From: Elusimicrobiota bacterium
GTDB lineage: Bacteria; Elusimicrobiota; Elusimicrobia; UBA1565
NCBI GenBank assembly: GCA_041660925.1
Contig: JBAZVI010000003.1
Location: forward strand, 93,832 to 157,831
Length of the DNA stretch: 64,000 bases
Reading direction: 5' to 3'
The notes beneath the pieces were generated by a model. That model saw nothing but the letters and a program-made list of their open reading frames with translations. It did no database searches and was not told where the DNA came from. The number at the start of each line of letters is the position of its first letter. Positions within the stretch are counted from its first letter, which is position 1. The position numbers and the translations under genes were made by a program. This document shows positions 38,996-44,900 of the stretch, one piece after another.

Positions 38996-41900
38996 GCCTG
39001 GGCGATCATCCGATAGTCGGCGAGGCGCACCCAGACGCGGTGCTGTCCGTCGAAGACGGCCGCATCGTAGATGCGCTTGTCGCCCTCTTCTCCCCGGTAG
39101 ACCGCGTGCACGTAGAGCTCCTCGGGGGGAGCCCCGTGGTCGAAGACCTGCACGAGCCCCACGGTGTCCGGCAGGGTCAGCTTCTTCGTGAAGTGCAGGT
39201 CGCGGAAGCCGCAGGTCTGGAACGCCGCCTCGATGAGGAGCGGGTTCCAGACGAACGTGCGGCCGTCCTTCTCCCAGAGCGCCTTCTCGGGCTTTCGGTA
39301 GAGCGCGAGGAGCTGCTTCTCGCCGAGCTCGTACATCCCGGCGAGCACCTGGAAGCTCGGGCCGTGGAAGTTGAGCGTGTAGATCGTCTCCTTGCCCGCG
39401 ACGAGCTCCTTGCCCGTCGGGATCGCCGGCTTCTTCAGGCCCTTCCAGCCGTCGCCCCCCGCGGTGGAGATGCGCGCCTGGAAGTGGCTGCGCGGCGCGC
39501 CGAGCTTCACGCCCGCCGCGTTGAAGAAGTCCGACTCGATGGCGAGCGCGCTTTCGCGGCCCTCGCGCTTCGCGTCGACGCGCACGGTCGCGGGCTTGCC
39601 GCGCAGAAGCTTGATGGGGAGCGCGAAGCGCACCTCCGCCAGCGCCTTGGGCGGCGCGCCGGTCATCCGGGCGACGGACTCCGCGAAGAGTTCGATGCCC
39701 ATGACGCCGGGGATGTAGGGCACCCCGCTGATCGAGTGGTCGTGAAGCCAGGGGTCGCCCTCCAGCGAGAAGGTCTTCGTCAGGCGCACGTGGCCGGGTC
39801 CTTCGGCGAGCACGCGGTCGAAGAGGTGGACCGGCTTCTCGTCGACCTTCGCTTTCTGGACCTTGGGAGCCACGGCCTCGAGGGCCGGGGTCAGGAAGGC
39901 CTCCGGCGGCAGCGGACCCTGGATCATGATGCCGTCGGCGTCCAGCTTTCCGAGAGACCCGCTGAGGACGACCTCGGTCTCGCGGCCGAGCGCGAACTCG
40001 TCGAGCAGAAGACCGAGGCCGATCTTGGGCGGCATGAAGTCCACGCCCATCGACTCGAGGAACTGCTGAACGCCGCCGCGGGTGGCCATGCCGACCTCGG
40101 CGAAGGCCGTCAGGTCGAAGGCCACGGCCGAGCGGCCGGTCGCGTTCATGTGCGCGGCGAGCTTCACGAGGAAGTCGTTGGCCGTCGCGTAGTCCGCCTG
40201 CCCGAGGTTCCCGAAGCGGGCCACGATGGAGGAGAAGAACACCCAGCGCTGGCCCGGGGAGTGCGGCAGGGCCTTCATGAGGTTGAAGGCGCCGTGGGCT
40301 TTGGGCCGCACGACGCGGTCGTAGTTCTCGACCTTCTTGTCGGCGATGAGCTTGGACTCCTCGAGGCCGGCGGTGTGGAACACGTAGTCCACCTGCCCGA
40401 AATCCTTGATCGCGCCTTTCACCGCCCGCGCGGTCTCGGCCGGGTCGGTGAGGTCGGCGGCGTGGTAGCTCACCCTGCAGCCCATGCGGATGAGCTCCTC
40501 GATGCCGTGGTGCAGCTTGATCGTGTTGAGGATGCGGCGGAACTCGCGTTCCAGCATGGCCGGCGTCGCGCGGCGGCTCTTGTCCGCCTTCATGTCCTCC
40601 CACATCTTCGCCTTCATCGCCTTGAGCTCGTCCTCGCTCATGCGGGCCCAGACCGTCGCCTCCTTGGGCAGCGGGAAGAGGTCCACGAGGGCGATGCGCG
40701 GCTTCCAGCGCCGGGCGATGTCCTTGGCGAGCTCGGCGGCGAGTGCGCCGCCGCCTCCGGTGATGAGGAAGACCGAGCGCTGGGTGACGCGGCGCGTGGT
40801 CGGTTCGCGTCGGCCGACGCGGAAGAGGCGCAGCGCCTGGCGCACGCCGTCCTTGTAGCCGATCTCGCGGCGCGGGTCCTCGGACCCGACCTCTCCGAGG
40901 GCGAGCGCGAGCATGTCGGCGGGCTGCGCCTTCTCGTCGAAGTCCACGGCGCGCACCGCGGCTTTGTCGAACTCGCGGCAGAGGGCCTTCGCCAGCCCGG
41001 TCATCGCGCCGGCCATGGGCTGGAAGCCCTTCTCGGACTTCACGCCGTGGGCGCCGCCCATGCGGGTGAGCACGAGGATCCAGGCCTTCGCGCCGGCCTC
41101 GACGAGGTCCGCGCGCAGGTTCTGCGCCGTCAGGAACAGCGCCCGGGCGGTGCGGCGGTAGGTCTTGTCGAAGGCCGACGGGGTCATCTCGTCGAACCCG
41201 GCCGGCAGCTCGAGGGCGGTGAGGTCGAGGATCGCGCCGGCTTTGCGGTCCTTCAGGGTCTTGCGCAGCTCGGCCGTCGCCTCGGCCGCGTCGGCCCAGT
41301 CGGCGGTCTTCACGACGACCGGGGCTCCGCCCGCCGCCTCGAGGGCGGCCGCGTAGGGCTCGGCCGTCTTCGGCTCGAGGACGAGGACGACGATCGCGCG
41401 TTCCTTGTCGAGCGTCGGGGCGCTCCCCTTCGCGGGCTTGGGGAAGGCGTTCACGCGCCACGGCGCGAACTTCGCGTCGCGGTAGGGGTCTTCGTCCAGT
41501 TCGGCGATCGCTGGGGCGATCGCCGAGGGGGCCTCGACGGGAGCTGGATTCGCGGTCATGGGGGCTTCGACCGCGGCAGCAGCTTGTGTCGACGCCGCCG
41601 GAGCCTCGCCGGAGGACGAGGATCCGGCCTGCACGAAGCGCACGACGTGGCGCAGCGTGGGATAGTCCTTGAGCGAGAGGTTCTCCTTGCGCGGGATGCC
41701 GTACTTCTCGCGGATGAGGCCGAAGAGCTCGGCCTGCTTGACGGTGTCGATGCCGAGGTCGGCCTCCATGTCGAGGTTGAGCTCGAGCATCTCGAGCGGG
41801 TAGCCGGTCTTCTCGCTGACGAGCGTGACAACGGCGCGCAGAACGTCCTCTTCGCGCGCCGTTGTCACGGGGGTTGCCGGGAGTTGCTGCGCGGATTGCG

Positions 41901-44900
41901 GAGCGACTGCCGGGGTCTCGCCGGAGGACGAGCCCCCGGCACTTTCGACGACGAAGCGCACGACGTGGCTGAGCGTCGGATAATCCTTGAGCGAGAGGTT
42001 CTCCTTGCGCGGGATGCCGTACTTCTCGCGGATGAGGCCGAAGAGCTCGGCCTGCTTGACGGTGTCGATGCCGAGGTCGGCCTCCATGTCGAGGTTGAGC
42101 TCGAGCATCTCGAGCGGGTAGCCGGTCTTGTCGCTGACAAGGGCGACGACCGCCTTGACGACGTTTTGCTCACCGTCCGCTGCGGTCGTCGCCGTGGGCG
42201 TAGGAATCGTCTGTACAGCGGACGGGGCAGCGATGGACGCGGCGGGAGCGGACGGCTGCGTCCCCGCGCTCGCGACGGTCCGAGAAGACCCCGCCGGAAT
42301 CCCGCCGGAGGACGGGAGTCCGGCGCTGTCGACGACGAAGCGCGCGACGTGGCGCAGCGTCGGATAATCCTTCAGCGAGAGGTTCTCCTTGCGCGGGATG
42401 CCGTACTTCTCGCGGATGATCCCGAGGAGCTCGGCCTGCTTGACGGTGTCGATGCCGAGGTCGGCCTCCATGTCGAGGTCGGCTTCGAGCATCTCGGCCG
42501 GGTAGCCGGTCTTCTCGCTGACGATCGCCACGACGTCCGAGAGGACGGCGGCCTCGTTCCCGGCGGCGATGCGCGGGGCGGGCGCCGCGGTCGGAGCCGG
42601 TGCGGCGGCGCGCTGGCCCCTCTCCTCTCGCGCCGTCCCTTCGGCGCTCGGGCCCGCCGAAGGGAGCTCCGGCTTGAAGGAAACGGCCTCCGACTGAGGC
42701 GCGGGCGCGGCGCTGTGAGAGGCTCCTCCGGTGCTCTCGAGGACGAAGCGCACGACGTGGTTGAGCGTCGGATAGTCCTTGAGGGAGAGGTTCTCCTTGC
42801 GCGGGATGCCGTACCTCTCGCGGATGACGCCGATGAGCTCGGCCTGCTTGACGGTGTCGATGCCGAGGTCGGCCTCCATGTCGAGGTCGGGCTCGAGCAT
42901 CTCCGCCGGGTAGCCGGTCTTCTCGCTCACGATCGCGAGGACGGTGCGCCGGATGTCCTCCTCTCGCACCGCACCTGCGGCGCTAAGGCCCGCCGCAGGT
43001 GTCGACGGGCGAATGGCAGCCGCCGGCGTCGGGGAGGGAGTCTGCCGGGCAACAGGCTGCGGCAGGGAGATGGGAGTCGGATGGACCGCGGGCCCGGGGG
43101 CTGGAATGTTTGTCGCGCGCGCGGCGGCGGCGTTCTCCTTCACGCGCAGGGTGTTCTGGACGACCTCGAGCTCCGGCGCGTCCTGCCCGGACATCGCCTT
43201 GAGCCAGGCCTTGTGCCGGGCCGGGTCGGCGATGCGGGCCTCGCCCTTGCGCAGCACGCGGCGCGAGAGGGTCATCGCGATCTGCGAGCCGAAGCCGGCG
43301 GCGAGCCGGATCGCGTACTCGAGGTCGTAGTCCCCCCCGCGGCTGAGGTTGATGCCGGCGAGGTCGGGGTCCGCTTCCTTGTAGTTGGCGATGGGCGGCA
43401 CGACGCCGGTGACGAGCGCGCGGATCGCGGTCGGGTCTTCGGGAGAGGCGCCCATGGAGTGGCCGGTGAAGCCCTTGGTGTTGGTCACGACGATCTTCGC
43501 CGCGTCGGCGCCGAAGGTGCGCTGGAGGGCGGCGACCTCGGCCGAGGCGGAGCCGCCGCGGGCCGGGGTGTAGGTCTCGTGCGACATGAAGAGCGCCTTG
43601 GCGGCGATCGCGCGGCGGTCCACGCCGAAGCGCTTCTCGGCCTTGGCGACGAGGCGGCCCATGACGTCGGCGACGTGGTTGGGCTCCAGACGCGTGGCGT
43701 GGAAGGCGCTGTTCTCGTACTGCGTGGAGAGGATCTCGACGAGCGGACGCATGCCGCGCTCGGCGGCGAGCGCGCCGCGCTCGAGGAGCATGCCGGCCGC
43801 GCCCATGCCGACGATCATCCCGTGACGGCGGCGGTCGAAGGGCAGGGCGGCCTCGCTGACGACCGCGCTCGTCGTCGCGGCGCCGGCGGCGACGAAGCCG
43901 GAGAGCATCCATTCGCGCAGATCCGTTCCCGAGGGGTCGTCGCCCGCGATGATGAGGACGCGCTCGGCGCGTCCCAGGCGAAGCCAGTCCTCGGCGACGC
44001 CCACGGCCTCGGTCGTCGAGGCGCAGGCGGCGTTGAGGTGCATGCCCGGCCCGCGCGCGCCGATCCACTGCATGAGCTGGGAGTGGGCCAGCGGCATGAC
44101 GCGCAGCAGGAAGTCGCGGCTGAACTCGTAGGGGGCGGCGCTCCCGTGCTTCTCGTAGTAGGGTTGGAAGCTCTCGGTCTGCCAGCGGCGCAGGGCTTCC
44201 TTCTCGGAGGGATCGGAGACCTTCTCGACGAGGGCGTCGAAGAGTTCGGAGAGCTCGCGCAGCGGCTTGCCGCGGTACTTGTCGGCCAGGTAGCGCGCGA
44301 CCTCGGAGGCCATCGCGTCGAGGTTCGTGTAGGCGGAGGCGAAGATGACGCCGGTGCCCGCGCGCAGCGGCTCGGGCAGGGCCCACCCGGAGGGCAGCAG
44401 CGTCCCCAGCGAGGTCTTCTTGTAGGTGCGCACGAGCGGGAGGCCCGCGTCGCGCAGCGCGAGGACCCCCGCGGCGACGGCGAGGCGCGAGGCGCTGTCC
44501 ATCGCGTGCACGAGCGCGTCCTTGAAGCCGAACTCCTTGGCGAGGTCGAACTCGCCGGCGACGCCCGCCAGCCGCACGACCTCGGCGGCCGACTGGATGC
44601 GCTCGAGGCGGTGGTTGCCGTCGTCGGACTTGATGAGGCGCAGGATGTTCTTGTCGATCTGACGCTCGGCCTCGGATTCCGGCAGGCGGCTGATGAGGTT
44701 CTGGCCGCGCAGCAGGGAGTCGATGCCGTCCTCGCGGAAGACGCGCTCCCACTGCCCGGGGGTCCCGGCGGCGACGCCGCTGACGACGACGGGGCCGGTG
44801 TAGAAGCCCCATTTCTCGTCCTGTGCGGCGGTGCGCTGGTCGCTCTCCGCTCGCACCGTCCCTGCGGCGTTCGTGCCGGCTGCACCGGCACCTGCGGCCG

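Follow-up and report, generated by a model that had tools for sequence, protein, structure and literature searches.

The four tandem acyl carrier protein (ACP) domains of a type I iterative synthase, encoded in a 64,000-nucleotide stretch of DNA from an Elusimicrobiota bacterium (hereafter the window), all carry threonine at the position where, to our knowledge, serine bears the cofactor in every characterised carrier protein. This threonine is a hallmark of the whole synthase family and is not peculiar to the window locus. Comparative evidence points, with a probability that we place near 70%, to the threonine as the phosphopantetheine site of working ACPs serviced by a dedicated phosphopantetheinyl transferase (PPTase).

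The synthase and its place among known systems

The synthase gene lies at positions 38992..47793 of the window, on the minus strand like all features described below, and encodes a ‘Type R’ pfaA homologue of 2933 amino acids with the order KS1-AT-KS2-ACPx4-KR-DH, as read from the open reading frame and its translation, Pfam matches and catalytic motifs. KS1 (residues 8-473; 46375..47772) is recognised by the Pfam profiles ketoacyl-synt, Ketoacyl-synt_C and KAsynt_C_assoc and bears Cys213 (in DAACA), His350 and His387. The acyltransferase domain (AT; residues 604-930; 45004..45984; Acyl_transf_1, E = 1.7e-42) has GHSLG at residue 700 and HAFH at 804, the latter a malonyl-type motif in polyketide synthases. 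KS2 (residues 1000-1560; 43114..44796), the second ketoacyl-synt stretch, has its Cys (NAACAS), His (SHET) and His (TGH) all intact, and these residues (Cys258, His406 and His446) are invariant in a 12-sequence alignment (A1). On the other side of the ACPs lie the ketoreductase catalytic domain (KR; residues 2341-2565; 40099..40773; Pfam KR, E = 2.9e-31), with YATAN at 2535, and a PKS-type dehydratase (DH; residues 2665-2933; 38995..39801; PKS_DH_N), with HxxxGxxxxP at 2686; the synthase contains no enoyl reductase in cis. Catalytic motifs are present in all of KS1, AT, KS2, KR and DH and, judging by this conservation, the synthase looks alive.

The locus is a member of the ‘Type R’ secondary-lipid synthase clusters (Shulse and Allen, 2011; PMC3098273), described from Elusimicrobium minutum, Koribacter, Solibacter and Roseiflexus as a pfaA homologue of the order KS-MAT-CLF-ACP(3-6)-KR with a downstream PPTase, an ACC-complex gene being noted in the Koribacter cluster. 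The window contains a single pfaA homologue of matching order, directly followed by a PPTase whose LSISH fits the P1b' motif hShxH, and it shares with Type R the phylum and the ACC gene, without structural difference. Profile searches with KS2 retrieve the E. minutum (L024) and Roseiflexus (L052) loci and many loci of Acidobacteriota with 49-51% identity along the whole domain, and the ACPs of the E. minutum, Roseiflexus and Oscillochloris loci are all of the Thr type. The second KS of Type R was named CLF, whereas the Cys/His/His triad found in KS2 is intact; the word ‘threonine’ has no occurrence in the same paper (PMC3098273).

The preliminary description set the ACPs against those of PUFA synthases; the enzyme itself belongs to Type R. 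A bona fide PfaA is ruled out by the TIGR02813 score of 977.7 bits, below the cut-off of 1010.1 and with a best stretch covering KS-AT only, by a second KS of 560 amino acids between AT and ACPs, which breaks the PfaA order KS-MAT-ACPn-KR(-DH) and is lacking in Ser-type relatives, and by the absence of pfaB, pfaC and pfaD partners among the flanking genes, i.e., the PPTase, a carboxyltransferase, a peptidase S13 and unrelated housekeeping genes. The likeness to PfaA lies in the homologous KS-AT, the tandem ACP array, the KR and the PKS-type DH, in the stretch TGYP...LDxEADLGID-x-xK...T shared by the ACPs around the attachment site, and in the dependence, presumed for the window synthase, on a PPTase of the Sfp/EntD type. 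Enediyne iterative synthases (PKSE), which are related to PUFA synthases, have the order KS-AT-ACP-KR-DH-PPTase without an ER; they bear a single Ser-type ACP and a C-terminally fused PPTase, and are not known to have a second KS. By description, this fused PPTase resembles the 84 mostly archaeal fusions considered below.

Threonine in the four carrier domains and across the family

The four Pfam-delimited ACP domains lie at 42724..42972 (ACP1, residues 1608-1690, also placed by phmmer alignment and an AF2 model), 42316..42564 (ACP2, residues 1744-1826), 41932..42180 (ACP3, residues 1872-1954) and 41614..41862 (ACP4, residues 1978-2060); together they cover 41614-42972, in agreement with the span of 41560-42960 first given for them. 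Their motif is EADLGIDTVKQAEL, and DLGIDTVKQAEL is found in each of the four Pfam PP-binding stretches, for which the PF00550 profile reaches 93.7 bits, past its curated threshold of 20.8. The invariant Ser of (D/E)xGxDS that belongs to PF00550 is replaced by Thr in 4/4 domains, namely T1647, T1783, T1911 and T2017, and the codon is ACC each time (42853-42855, 42445-42447, 42061-42063 and 41743-41745, respectively), just as the preliminary description had read it. Identity between the repeats reaches only 82-85% at the DNA level and 75-81% at the protein level, so the Thr common to them does not reflect recent homogenisation.

It had been suggested that alignment might reveal a nearby attachment Ser. 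In phmmer alignments, it is the Thr itself that lines up exactly with the cofactor-bearing Ser of structurally solved ACPs (DLGVDS in PigH, DLGADS in the Aquifex and H. pylori ACPs). In an AlphaFold2 model of the ACP (pLDDT 89), the Thr, residue 40, is where helix II begins; the model superposes on ACP structures with a TM of about 0.8, and its top 35 PDB matches in Foldseek are all ACPs, mostly at TM 0.7-0.85. The tandem ACPs of PfaA read DLGIDSIKRVEIL, where those of the window have Thr for Ser, and classical PfaA-type relatives read DLGIDSIK[RK], as was originally stated of PUFA-synthase ACPs. Thr-type ACPs also have V, Q and R at +1, +3 and +11, where PfaA ACPs have I, R/K and Q, and form a separate sequence group even with the motif columns removed.

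The Thr is present, far beyond chance, in 452/452 ACP motifs from 120 homologues and at 225/225 sites in 78 sequences (the window and 77 genome loci); this survey of homologous clusters, proposed at the outset, upholds the view that the variant is fixed and did not arise by an error in sequencing. All four Thr codons (ACC, ACG, ACT and ACA) are used over the 225 sites. Ser codons lie one substitution from Thr codons, yet every one of these sites stays Thr. Among 704 unique Thr-type domains, T40, K42 and Q43 are conserved at 100% and V41 at 99%, and the motif stays unchanged over more than 1000 copies of the domain, its codons turning over synonymously; the fixed neighbours V41, Q43 and R51 are unlike those of Ser-type ACPs. 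Pseudo-ACPs in which the hydroxyl residue is replaced (by Ala, Gly or a gap) have lost the remaining motif too. The number of ACP copies ranges between 1 and 6 across the family, as in productive PUFA synthases, and the synthase is encoded in at least 594 species genomes, which belong to many bacterial phyla, Asgard, Thermoplasmatota and other archaea.

Ser and Thr interchange at this position within the family. All-Ser forms (P0199 and P0322) sit inside the Thr clade, and the Ser codons of P0199, AGT and TCT, are mutually two steps apart and each one step from ACT. Three proteins that each have one fused PPTase, P0420 (S-T-S) and P0369 and P0379 (S-TTTTT), mix Ser with Thr domains, otherwise intact, within the same chain; the contigs of P0420 and P0369, both of which were read, hold no second PPTase nearby. 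Only one correlated change is seen in the PPTase, Gly to Ala in the GxDxE of the two all-Ser proteins, probably a single evolutionary event. The interchange suggests that Ser and Thr are functionally equivalent at the attachment position, and we count it as support for loading of the Thr.

The dedicated phosphopantetheinyl transferase

The gene at 38150..38995 encodes a predicted Sfp-type (group II) 4'-phosphopantetheinyl transferase of 281 amino acids, assigned from its sequence, the Pfam profiles ACPS and 4PPT_N, a family profile and an AF2 model. Its ATG overlaps the TGA of the synthase (ATGA at 38992-38995), and its stop overlaps the ATG of the next gene in the same manner (ATGA), which bears out the translational coupling noted in the preliminary description. 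The next gene (36546..38153; Pfam Carboxyl_trans, E = 1e-178; NCBIfam) encodes an acyl-CoA carboxylase carboxyltransferase subunit of 535 amino acids, presumed to supply malonyl-CoA, and it likewise comes after the PPTase in the Elusimicrobiota loci. The PPTase family profile aligns its GxDxE and WxxKExxK with those of Sfp (1QR0/4MRT; E = 2e-18); H113, G130-D132-E134 and W166-K169-E170-K174 show little or no variation in alignments A3 and A4, and the motifs align to Sfp H90, D107, E109, E151 and K155. The AF2 model (pLDDT 88) has a two-lobed, pseudo-dimeric, Sfp-like fold, and its top Foldseek matches are AASDHPPT, Sfp 4MRT (TMt 0.67), PptAb, PcpS and PptT. The catalytic motifs are those of an ordinary Sfp-type enzyme, no Thr-accommodating feature stands out in the sequence, and no curated NCBIfam model matches it. 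PPTases of the Sfp type transfer phosphopantetheine from CoA to a carrier hydroxyl, that of Ser in all cases known to us.

The PPTase is present at 44 of 51 informative genome loci (28 adjacent, 2 fused and 14 after one ACC gene), the remaining seven stopping short of the expected PPTase position. In addition, 84 homologues, mostly archaeal, are synthase-PPTase fusions, 79 of them all-Thr with a C-terminal PPTase domain. Gene order and fusion indicate that PPTase linkage is obligate in the family. The window encodes no other carrier protein and no AcpS, and the only local candidate substrates of the PPTase have Thr; likewise, no other carrier is found in the two archaeal loci with a fused PPTase that were read (L083 and L084).

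Proposed loading of the threonine and the competing explanations

The preferred reading is that the four domains would serve as working acyl carriers of an iterative type I fatty-acid/polyketide-like synthase, with the 4'-phosphopantetheine arm on the Thr that begins helix II (DLGID-T-VKQ), in place of the universal Ser. The arm would be attached by the co-translated Sfp-type PPTase encoded directly downstream, whose lineage appears to be co-inherited with, or fused to, Thr carriers throughout the family. Loaded carriers would take malonyl units from the AT, the malonyl-CoA coming from the co-transcribed carboxyltransferase, and would pass the growing chain among KS1/KS2, KR and DH. The unusual carrier/PPTase pair hypothesised in the preliminary description gains strong comparative support from the linkage, the 84 fusions and the Ser/Thr interchange, from which we infer it.

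The sole experimental Ser-to-Thr precedent in an ACP, the E. coli S36T variant with AcpS, is negative and speaks against Thr loading: this protein cannot take the 4'-phosphopantetheine and is non-functional (PMC3340395). AcpP S36T has an identical replacement at the structurally equivalent residue, but it is engineered, whereas the Thr of the family is a naturally selected, family-wide state served by a dedicated transferase of the Sfp type, not the AcpS type. A dedicated PPTase would be needed because S36T cannot be modified in E. coli (PMC3340395), and such an enzyme may be what makes phosphopantetheinylation of the Thr possible. Host enzymes of the AcpS type would then be unable to load the Thr carriers, and the pair would be insulated from housekeeping carrier metabolism. 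The open-access literature searched makes no mention of Thr in these carriers or of a linkage of the cofactor to threonine.

The same precedent, in which Ser-to-Thr kills modification in the only case tested (PMC3340395), together with a PPTase devoid of any obvious Thr-specific feature, favours the best-surviving alternative, that these are ACP-like folds that are never phosphopantetheinylated and have a structural or docking role, the chain being carried on CoA or on a separate Ser-type ACP served by the PPTase. We consider this unlikely. The DTVKQAE motif, the first to decay in real pseudo-ACPs, is invariant here, copy number ranges as in productive PUFA synthases, and Ser and Thr copies stand in the same array. 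No separate carrier is found in the window or in L083 and L084, and the 84 fusions, 79 of them all-Thr, would be left without a substrate in cis. The option of non-functional domains, raised in the preliminary description, is disfavoured by the invariance of the motif in more than 1000 copies, by the intact catalytic motifs and by the loss of the whole motif in degenerate copies.

Less probable is that the Thr bears another group, or that the PPTase homologue moves a different CoA-derived moiety to yield a different prosthetic arm. The distinctive neighbours V41, Q43 and R51 and the lack of a fitting NCBIfam model for the PPTase would be in keeping with such an arm, but the PPTase keeps all CoA/Mg-binding and catalytic motifs of Sfp as well as its fold, the KS, AT, KR and DH are ordinary thioester-handling domains, and Ser-bearing revertants occur within the same scaffold. 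Attachment to a residue other than the helix-II Thr, also entertained earlier, is more improbable still. The core of the window ACPs holds just one other Ser, in the conserved-looking ENLSLKDYPTL of all four repeats (NLSLKDY), and this residue recurs in only 11% of the 704 Thr-type domains, Gln and Lys being commoner there; no Ser, Thr, Cys or Lys besides the helix-II Thr is conserved specifically in the Thr-type clade, the other conserved Thr (T19 and T69) being equally conserved in Ser-type ACPs, and the modelled Thr takes the place of the canonical helix-II N-cap. Lastly, an artefact of sequencing or assembly, or a pseudogene in decay, for which no supporting point was found, is refuted by conservation across hundreds of independent assemblies, ACC recurring four times in repeats that differ at 15-18% of bases, in an uninterrupted 8.8-kb ORF of typical GC3 whose protein is identical to a public database entry (P0001, from an Elusimicrobiota MAG).

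Somewhat better than even, in our judgement, are the chances of the broader proposition, that O-(4'-phosphopantetheinyl)-threonine occurs naturally in proteins as an ancient, widespread modification and that these carriers are activated only by the co-inherited or fused PPTase lineage. If true, Thr-linked carriers would be in use throughout a type I lipid/polyketide synthase clade that spans at least 594 bacterial and archaeal species, and the carrier/activator pair would be insulated, its carriers being closed to housekeeping AcpS.

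Threonine at the acceptor position of four carrier domains

The four tandem acyl carrier protein (ACP) domains at 41560-42960 lie within a single 8.8-kb open reading frame (ORF) on the reverse strand (38992-47793), which codes for a synthase of 2933 aa and shows, by codon position, the G+C distribution of genuine genes in a window of 70.8% G+C. An identical protein (P0001), from an Elusimicrobiota MAG, is found in public databases. The Pfam domain order is KS, AT, a second KS (KS2), four PP-binding domains, KR and a PKS-type DH, and the catalytic inventory is intact, with Cys213/His350/His387 in KS1, GHSLG and HAFH in AT, Cys/His/His in KS2, YATAN in KR and HxxxGxxxxP in DH. 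KS2 (43114-44796, reverse strand) is located between AT and the ACPs, where the account of Type R clusters published in 2011 named a chain-length factor (Shulse and Allen, 2011; PMC3098273). Its full ketosynthase triad does not vary across an alignment of 12 sequences from different phyla, so that the synthase appears, judging from its sequence, to possess two active ketosynthases.

All four carrier domains contain EADLGIDTVKQAEL, and in each the residue at the attachment position is a Thr encoded by ACC on the reverse strand, as the preliminary description had reported: T1647 in ACP1 (42853-42855), T1783 in ACP2 (42445-42447), T1911 in ACP3 (42061-42063) and T2017 in ACP4 (41743-41745). The repeats, whose boundaries were taken from the protein sequence, share 82-85% identity as DNA and 75-81% as protein; the array, with its units of ~390 nt, ~84% identity and variable linkers, was not reported by Tandem Repeats Finder. 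In phmmer alignments of ACP1 against solved carrier proteins, among which no Thr-type ACP was matched in the PDB, this Thr falls on the Ser of DLGVDS in PigH and of DLGADS in the ACPs of Aquifex, H. pylori and Streptomyces. An AlphaFold2 model computed from 20 sequences of the family (pLDDT 89) has helices at residues 2-19, 40-54 and 70-80 and places the Thr (domain residue 40) first in helix II, the canonical site; its best PDB matches are exclusively ACPs (TM ~0.8, rmsd 1.5-2 Å). Two independent lines, alignment and model, thus put Thr at the acceptor position of a carrier fold.

Conservation and spread of the threonine-type carriers

The Thr is not a local oddity of this locus, as several surveys agree. 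All 452 ACP motifs in the 120 best homologues, nearly all from Elusimicrobiota plus one from Saprospiraceae, carry Thr, most of them within the invariant string LDMEADLGIDTVKQAEL. An exhaustive HMMER search with ACP1 against 1.84 billion cluster representatives retrieved 6379 clusters, 900 of them below 1e-30; the best 149 representatives contain 400 Thr and 224 Ser sites, almost each protein being either all-Thr or all-Ser. Thr-type proteins have the architecture KS-AT-KS2-ACPn-KR-DH, whereas Ser-type proteins have the classical PfaA-like arrangement KS-AT-ACPn-KR, and their ACPs do read DLGIDSIK[RK], the Ser expected for PUFA synthases. Among 704 unique Thr-type domains, T40, K42 and Q43 are conserved at 100%, V41 at 99% and R51 at 92%; the corresponding residues (positions 40, 41, 42, 43 and 51) in 179 Ser-type domains are S, I, K, R/K and Q. 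When the motif columns were excluded, the nearest neighbor was Thr-type for 704/704 Thr-type domains and Ser-type for 173 of the 179 Ser-type domains, which indicates that the Thr-type ACPs form a coherent clade.

A scan with a KS2 profile of one genome per GTDB species gave at least 600 matches, of which at least 594 were confirmed. The best 80 loci come from Elusimicrobiota, Chloroflexota (Roseiflexus, Kouleothrix, Oscillochloris, and Anaerolineae), Acidobacteriota, Myxococcota, Acidimicrobiia, Spirochaetia, Rhodothermales, and Thermoplasmatota archaea; the family is found in nearly all Elusimicrobiota and is frequent in Acidobacteriota and Chloroflexota. In 78 sequences (77 loci and the window), 225 of 225 sites are Thr and none is Ser. 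Their codons (ACC 118, ACG 85, ACT 11, ACA 11), from which Ser is one substitution away, display a pattern of synonymous turnover with strict conservation of the amino acid, i.e., family-wide purifying selection on Thr. Together with the 452 motifs, these sites bear out the earlier view of a fixed variant, and sequencing error is rejected as its cause, as is gene conversion as the source of the Thr shared among the repeats. One locus in the collection, L021 (CAVKWQ010000003.1), is labeled Muribaculaceae and has its synthase, PPTase and carboxyltransferase genes laid out as in L019, a locus of Candidatus Avelusimicrobium, whose PPTase sequence is almost identical. The contig probably belongs to Elusimicrobiota and was misplaced in a Bacteroidota genome bin.

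The preliminary description had also left room for non-functional domains or for the use of another residue, and neither option fares well. As for loss of function, extra domains lacking a hydroxyl residue do occur, with Ala (P0152), Gly (P0172) or a gap (P0139) in three homologues, and the remainder of the DTVKQAE motif is lost in them too, a picture of relaxed selection in an ACP scaffold. The catalytic motifs of the synthase, for their part, are intact. As for another residue, the sole other Ser in the ACP core of the window, in NLSLKDY, is shared by 11% of Thr-type domains and was rejected as an alternative attachment site, and the other conserved Thr residues (in TGYP and PTL) are conserved equally in Ser-type ACPs.

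A dedicated PPTase and the interchange of serine and threonine

The synthase gene is followed on the reverse strand by a PPTase gene (38150-38995, 281 aa), whose ATG overlaps the synthase TGA (ATGA), in agreement with the translational coupling proposed earlier, and whose stop codon (TGA) in turn shares bases with the ATG of a carboxyltransferase gene (36546-38153, reverse strand). Within the 64-kb window, neither a further carrier protein nor an AcpS-like ORF was detectable. A single-sequence search of the PDB with the PPTase returned a weak AcpS match only. A profile built from 24 PPTases that are linked to synthases in many phyla matches Sfp (1QR0/4MRT, E=2e-18), its xSxSH, GxDxE, and WxxKExxK motifs aligning to Sfp H90, D107, E109, E151, and K155. 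The AlphaFold2 model of the PPTase (pLDDT 88) has its best structural matches among group II PPTases (AASDHPPT, Sfp, PptAb, PcpS, and PptT). Residues ~195-238 of the window enzyme form a low-complexity insert of ~45 residues (LAPASDPAPASRGAAGASRVEPPSASQSASGAMRKEN...), which is modeled at pLDDT 50-57 and absent from homologues of other phyla.

Among 51 loci with usable downstream sequence, the PPTase is adjacent or overlapping in 28, fused in 2, and placed after one acyl-CoA carboxylase gene in 14; in the other 7, the sequence stops just short of its expected position. A search seeded with a Heimdallarchaeota protein recovered 79 all-Thr synthases bearing a fused C-terminal PPTase domain, those with source names coming from Asgard, Thermoplasmatota, Bathyarchaeia, Lokiarchaeota, and others. 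The linkage of the synthase to a coupled or fused Sfp-type PPTase is therefore, from gene order, essentially obligate. The S36T variant of E. coli ACP cannot be modified with 4′-phosphopantetheine (PMC3340395), which would explain why Thr-type carriers are always accompanied by their own transferase.

Natural interchange of Ser and Thr is found within the family. All-Ser arrays occur in two fused proteins, P0199 (DSVKVAE, five times) and P0322 (DSIKQAE, three times), and a neighbor-joining tree on 2280 ungapped columns places them as sisters within Thr-type lineages. The Ser codons of P0199, AGT and TCT, lie two steps from each other and one step each from ACT, which fits a Thr-to-Ser reversion; its gene includes the fused PPTase domain, and the contig stops ~500 bases past it. 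Mixed arrays of otherwise intact domains are also found, namely Ser-Thr-Ser in P0420, one Ser with five Thr in P0369 and P0379, and one Ser with four Thr in P0356. P0420, P0369, and P0379 each have a single fused PPTase, the contig DNA of P0420 and P0369 translates to these mixed-array proteins, and no second PPTase lies nearby on either contig. The nested all-Ser proteins and the mixed arrays speak in favor of either residue, Ser or Thr, serving as acceptor for PPTases of this lineage. When the fused PPTase domains were compared among synthases of Thr-only, mixed, and Ser-only type, no convincing Thr-specific residue emerged. Only the Ser-only P0199 and P0322 deviate at conserved positions (R53K, G92K, G130A, and G177R, window numbering); the Gly of GxDxE (window G130, Sfp G105) is 98% Gly in Thr-linked enzymes and Ala in these two. 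This change could be a relaxation of a pocket that must admit the Thr methyl. However, P0199 and P0322 are sister lineages, so that their PPTase changes, probably one evolutionary event, are not usable as evidence.

Identity of the system and its significance

The locus corresponds to the Type R secondary-lipid synthase, an already known cluster type in which a pfaA homologue (KS-MAT-CLF-ACP(3-6)-KR) is followed by a PPTase of hShxH type, described from E. minutum, Koribacter, Solibacter, and Roseiflexus without any occurrence of the word “threonine” (Shulse and Allen, 2011; PMC3098273). Membership of PfaA proper is rejected: the window synthase scores below the TIGR02813 cut-off (977.7 vs. 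1010.1), has an additional, apparently active KS, and lacks pfaB/C/D nearby.

Gene neighborhoods point to lipid synthesis fed by malonyl-CoA. Elusimicrobiota have the synthase, PPTase, and carboxyltransferase genes. In most other bacteria an acyl-CoA dehydrogenase gene lies immediately upstream; across loci L001 and L032-L081 it ends at the synthase start in 42 of 81 clustered loci, outside Elusimicrobiota (e.g., L038:5207-6919 and L001:3778-5457). Acidobacteriota add an ETF gene (ETF-alpha), an Fe-S CCG protein, and a WS/DGAT acyltransferase. These genes, none of which adjoins the synthase in the window, may serve enoyl reduction in trans and product esterification. Archaeal synthase-PPTase fusions (P0199, P0322-P0423; L031, L036, L083, L084) occur in Heimdallarchaeota and other Asgard, Lokiarchaeota, Bathyarchaeia, and Thermoplasmatota, some archaeal homologues also including a PF03060 enoyl-reductase domain. 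Acetyl-CoA carboxylase genes flank the synthase in Thermoplasmatota (L031 and L036; carboxyltransferase, fusion, biotin carboxylase) and in the Asgard locus L083 (biotin ligase, carboxyltransferase, fusion, alpha/beta hydrolase, BCCP, an unrelated gene, biotin carboxylase). These loci look like ACP-dependent lipid synthesis in archaea, which to our knowledge is not expected in Asgard. Elsewhere in the window, a 519-aa ORF (50450-52009, reverse strand) combines uroporphyrinogen-III synthase (HemD) and inositol-monophosphatase-family domains, and a 1237-aa ORF (21771-25484, reverse strand) with two Laminin_G_3 (concanavalin-like) domains and one fibronectin type III domain probably encodes a large protein that is secreted or located at the cell surface and has no relation to the synthase.

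From the comparative sequence evidence we consider it likely, at roughly 70%, that Thr is the phosphopantetheine site. The PPTase would move phosphopantetheine from CoA onto the Thr hydroxyl, and the holo-ACPs would accept malonyl from AT and serve KS1, KS2, KR, and DH iteratively. Enoyl reduction would be absent or provided in trans, candidates being the acyl-CoA dehydrogenase/ETF of other phyla and the fused PF03060 domain of some archaea. More speculatively, Thr may bar the housekeeping AcpS from the carriers and perhaps slow loss of the arm, insulating the pathway. The full-text literature searched, which includes few subscription journals, holds no report of Thr-linked phosphopantetheine, the DTVKQ motif, or the biochemistry of this family, nor any chemistry of the synthases beyond Shulse and Allen (2011). 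The Thr acceptor as a hallmark of Type R, the archaeal PPTase fusions, and the mixed Ser/Thr arrays appear to be new.

Attachment of phosphopantetheine to a conserved Ser counts as a defining rule for all fatty-acid, polyketide, and non-ribosomal-peptide carriers, built into motif definitions and annotation. If the Thr reading is true, a Thr fixed in a large ancient family would widen the chemistry of this modification, and the carrier/PPTase pair would be a natural one, maybe orthogonal to the host, with uses in site-specific protein labeling and insulated pathway engineering. It would also give the reason why a widespread Type R synthase always brings its own PPTase, and a likely cause of failed expression when Type R clusters are paired with a standard helper PPTase such as Sfp. 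The synthase family is of interest in itself, given its spread in Elusimicrobiota, Acidobacteriota, and Chloroflexota and its fusion to a PPTase in Asgard archaea.
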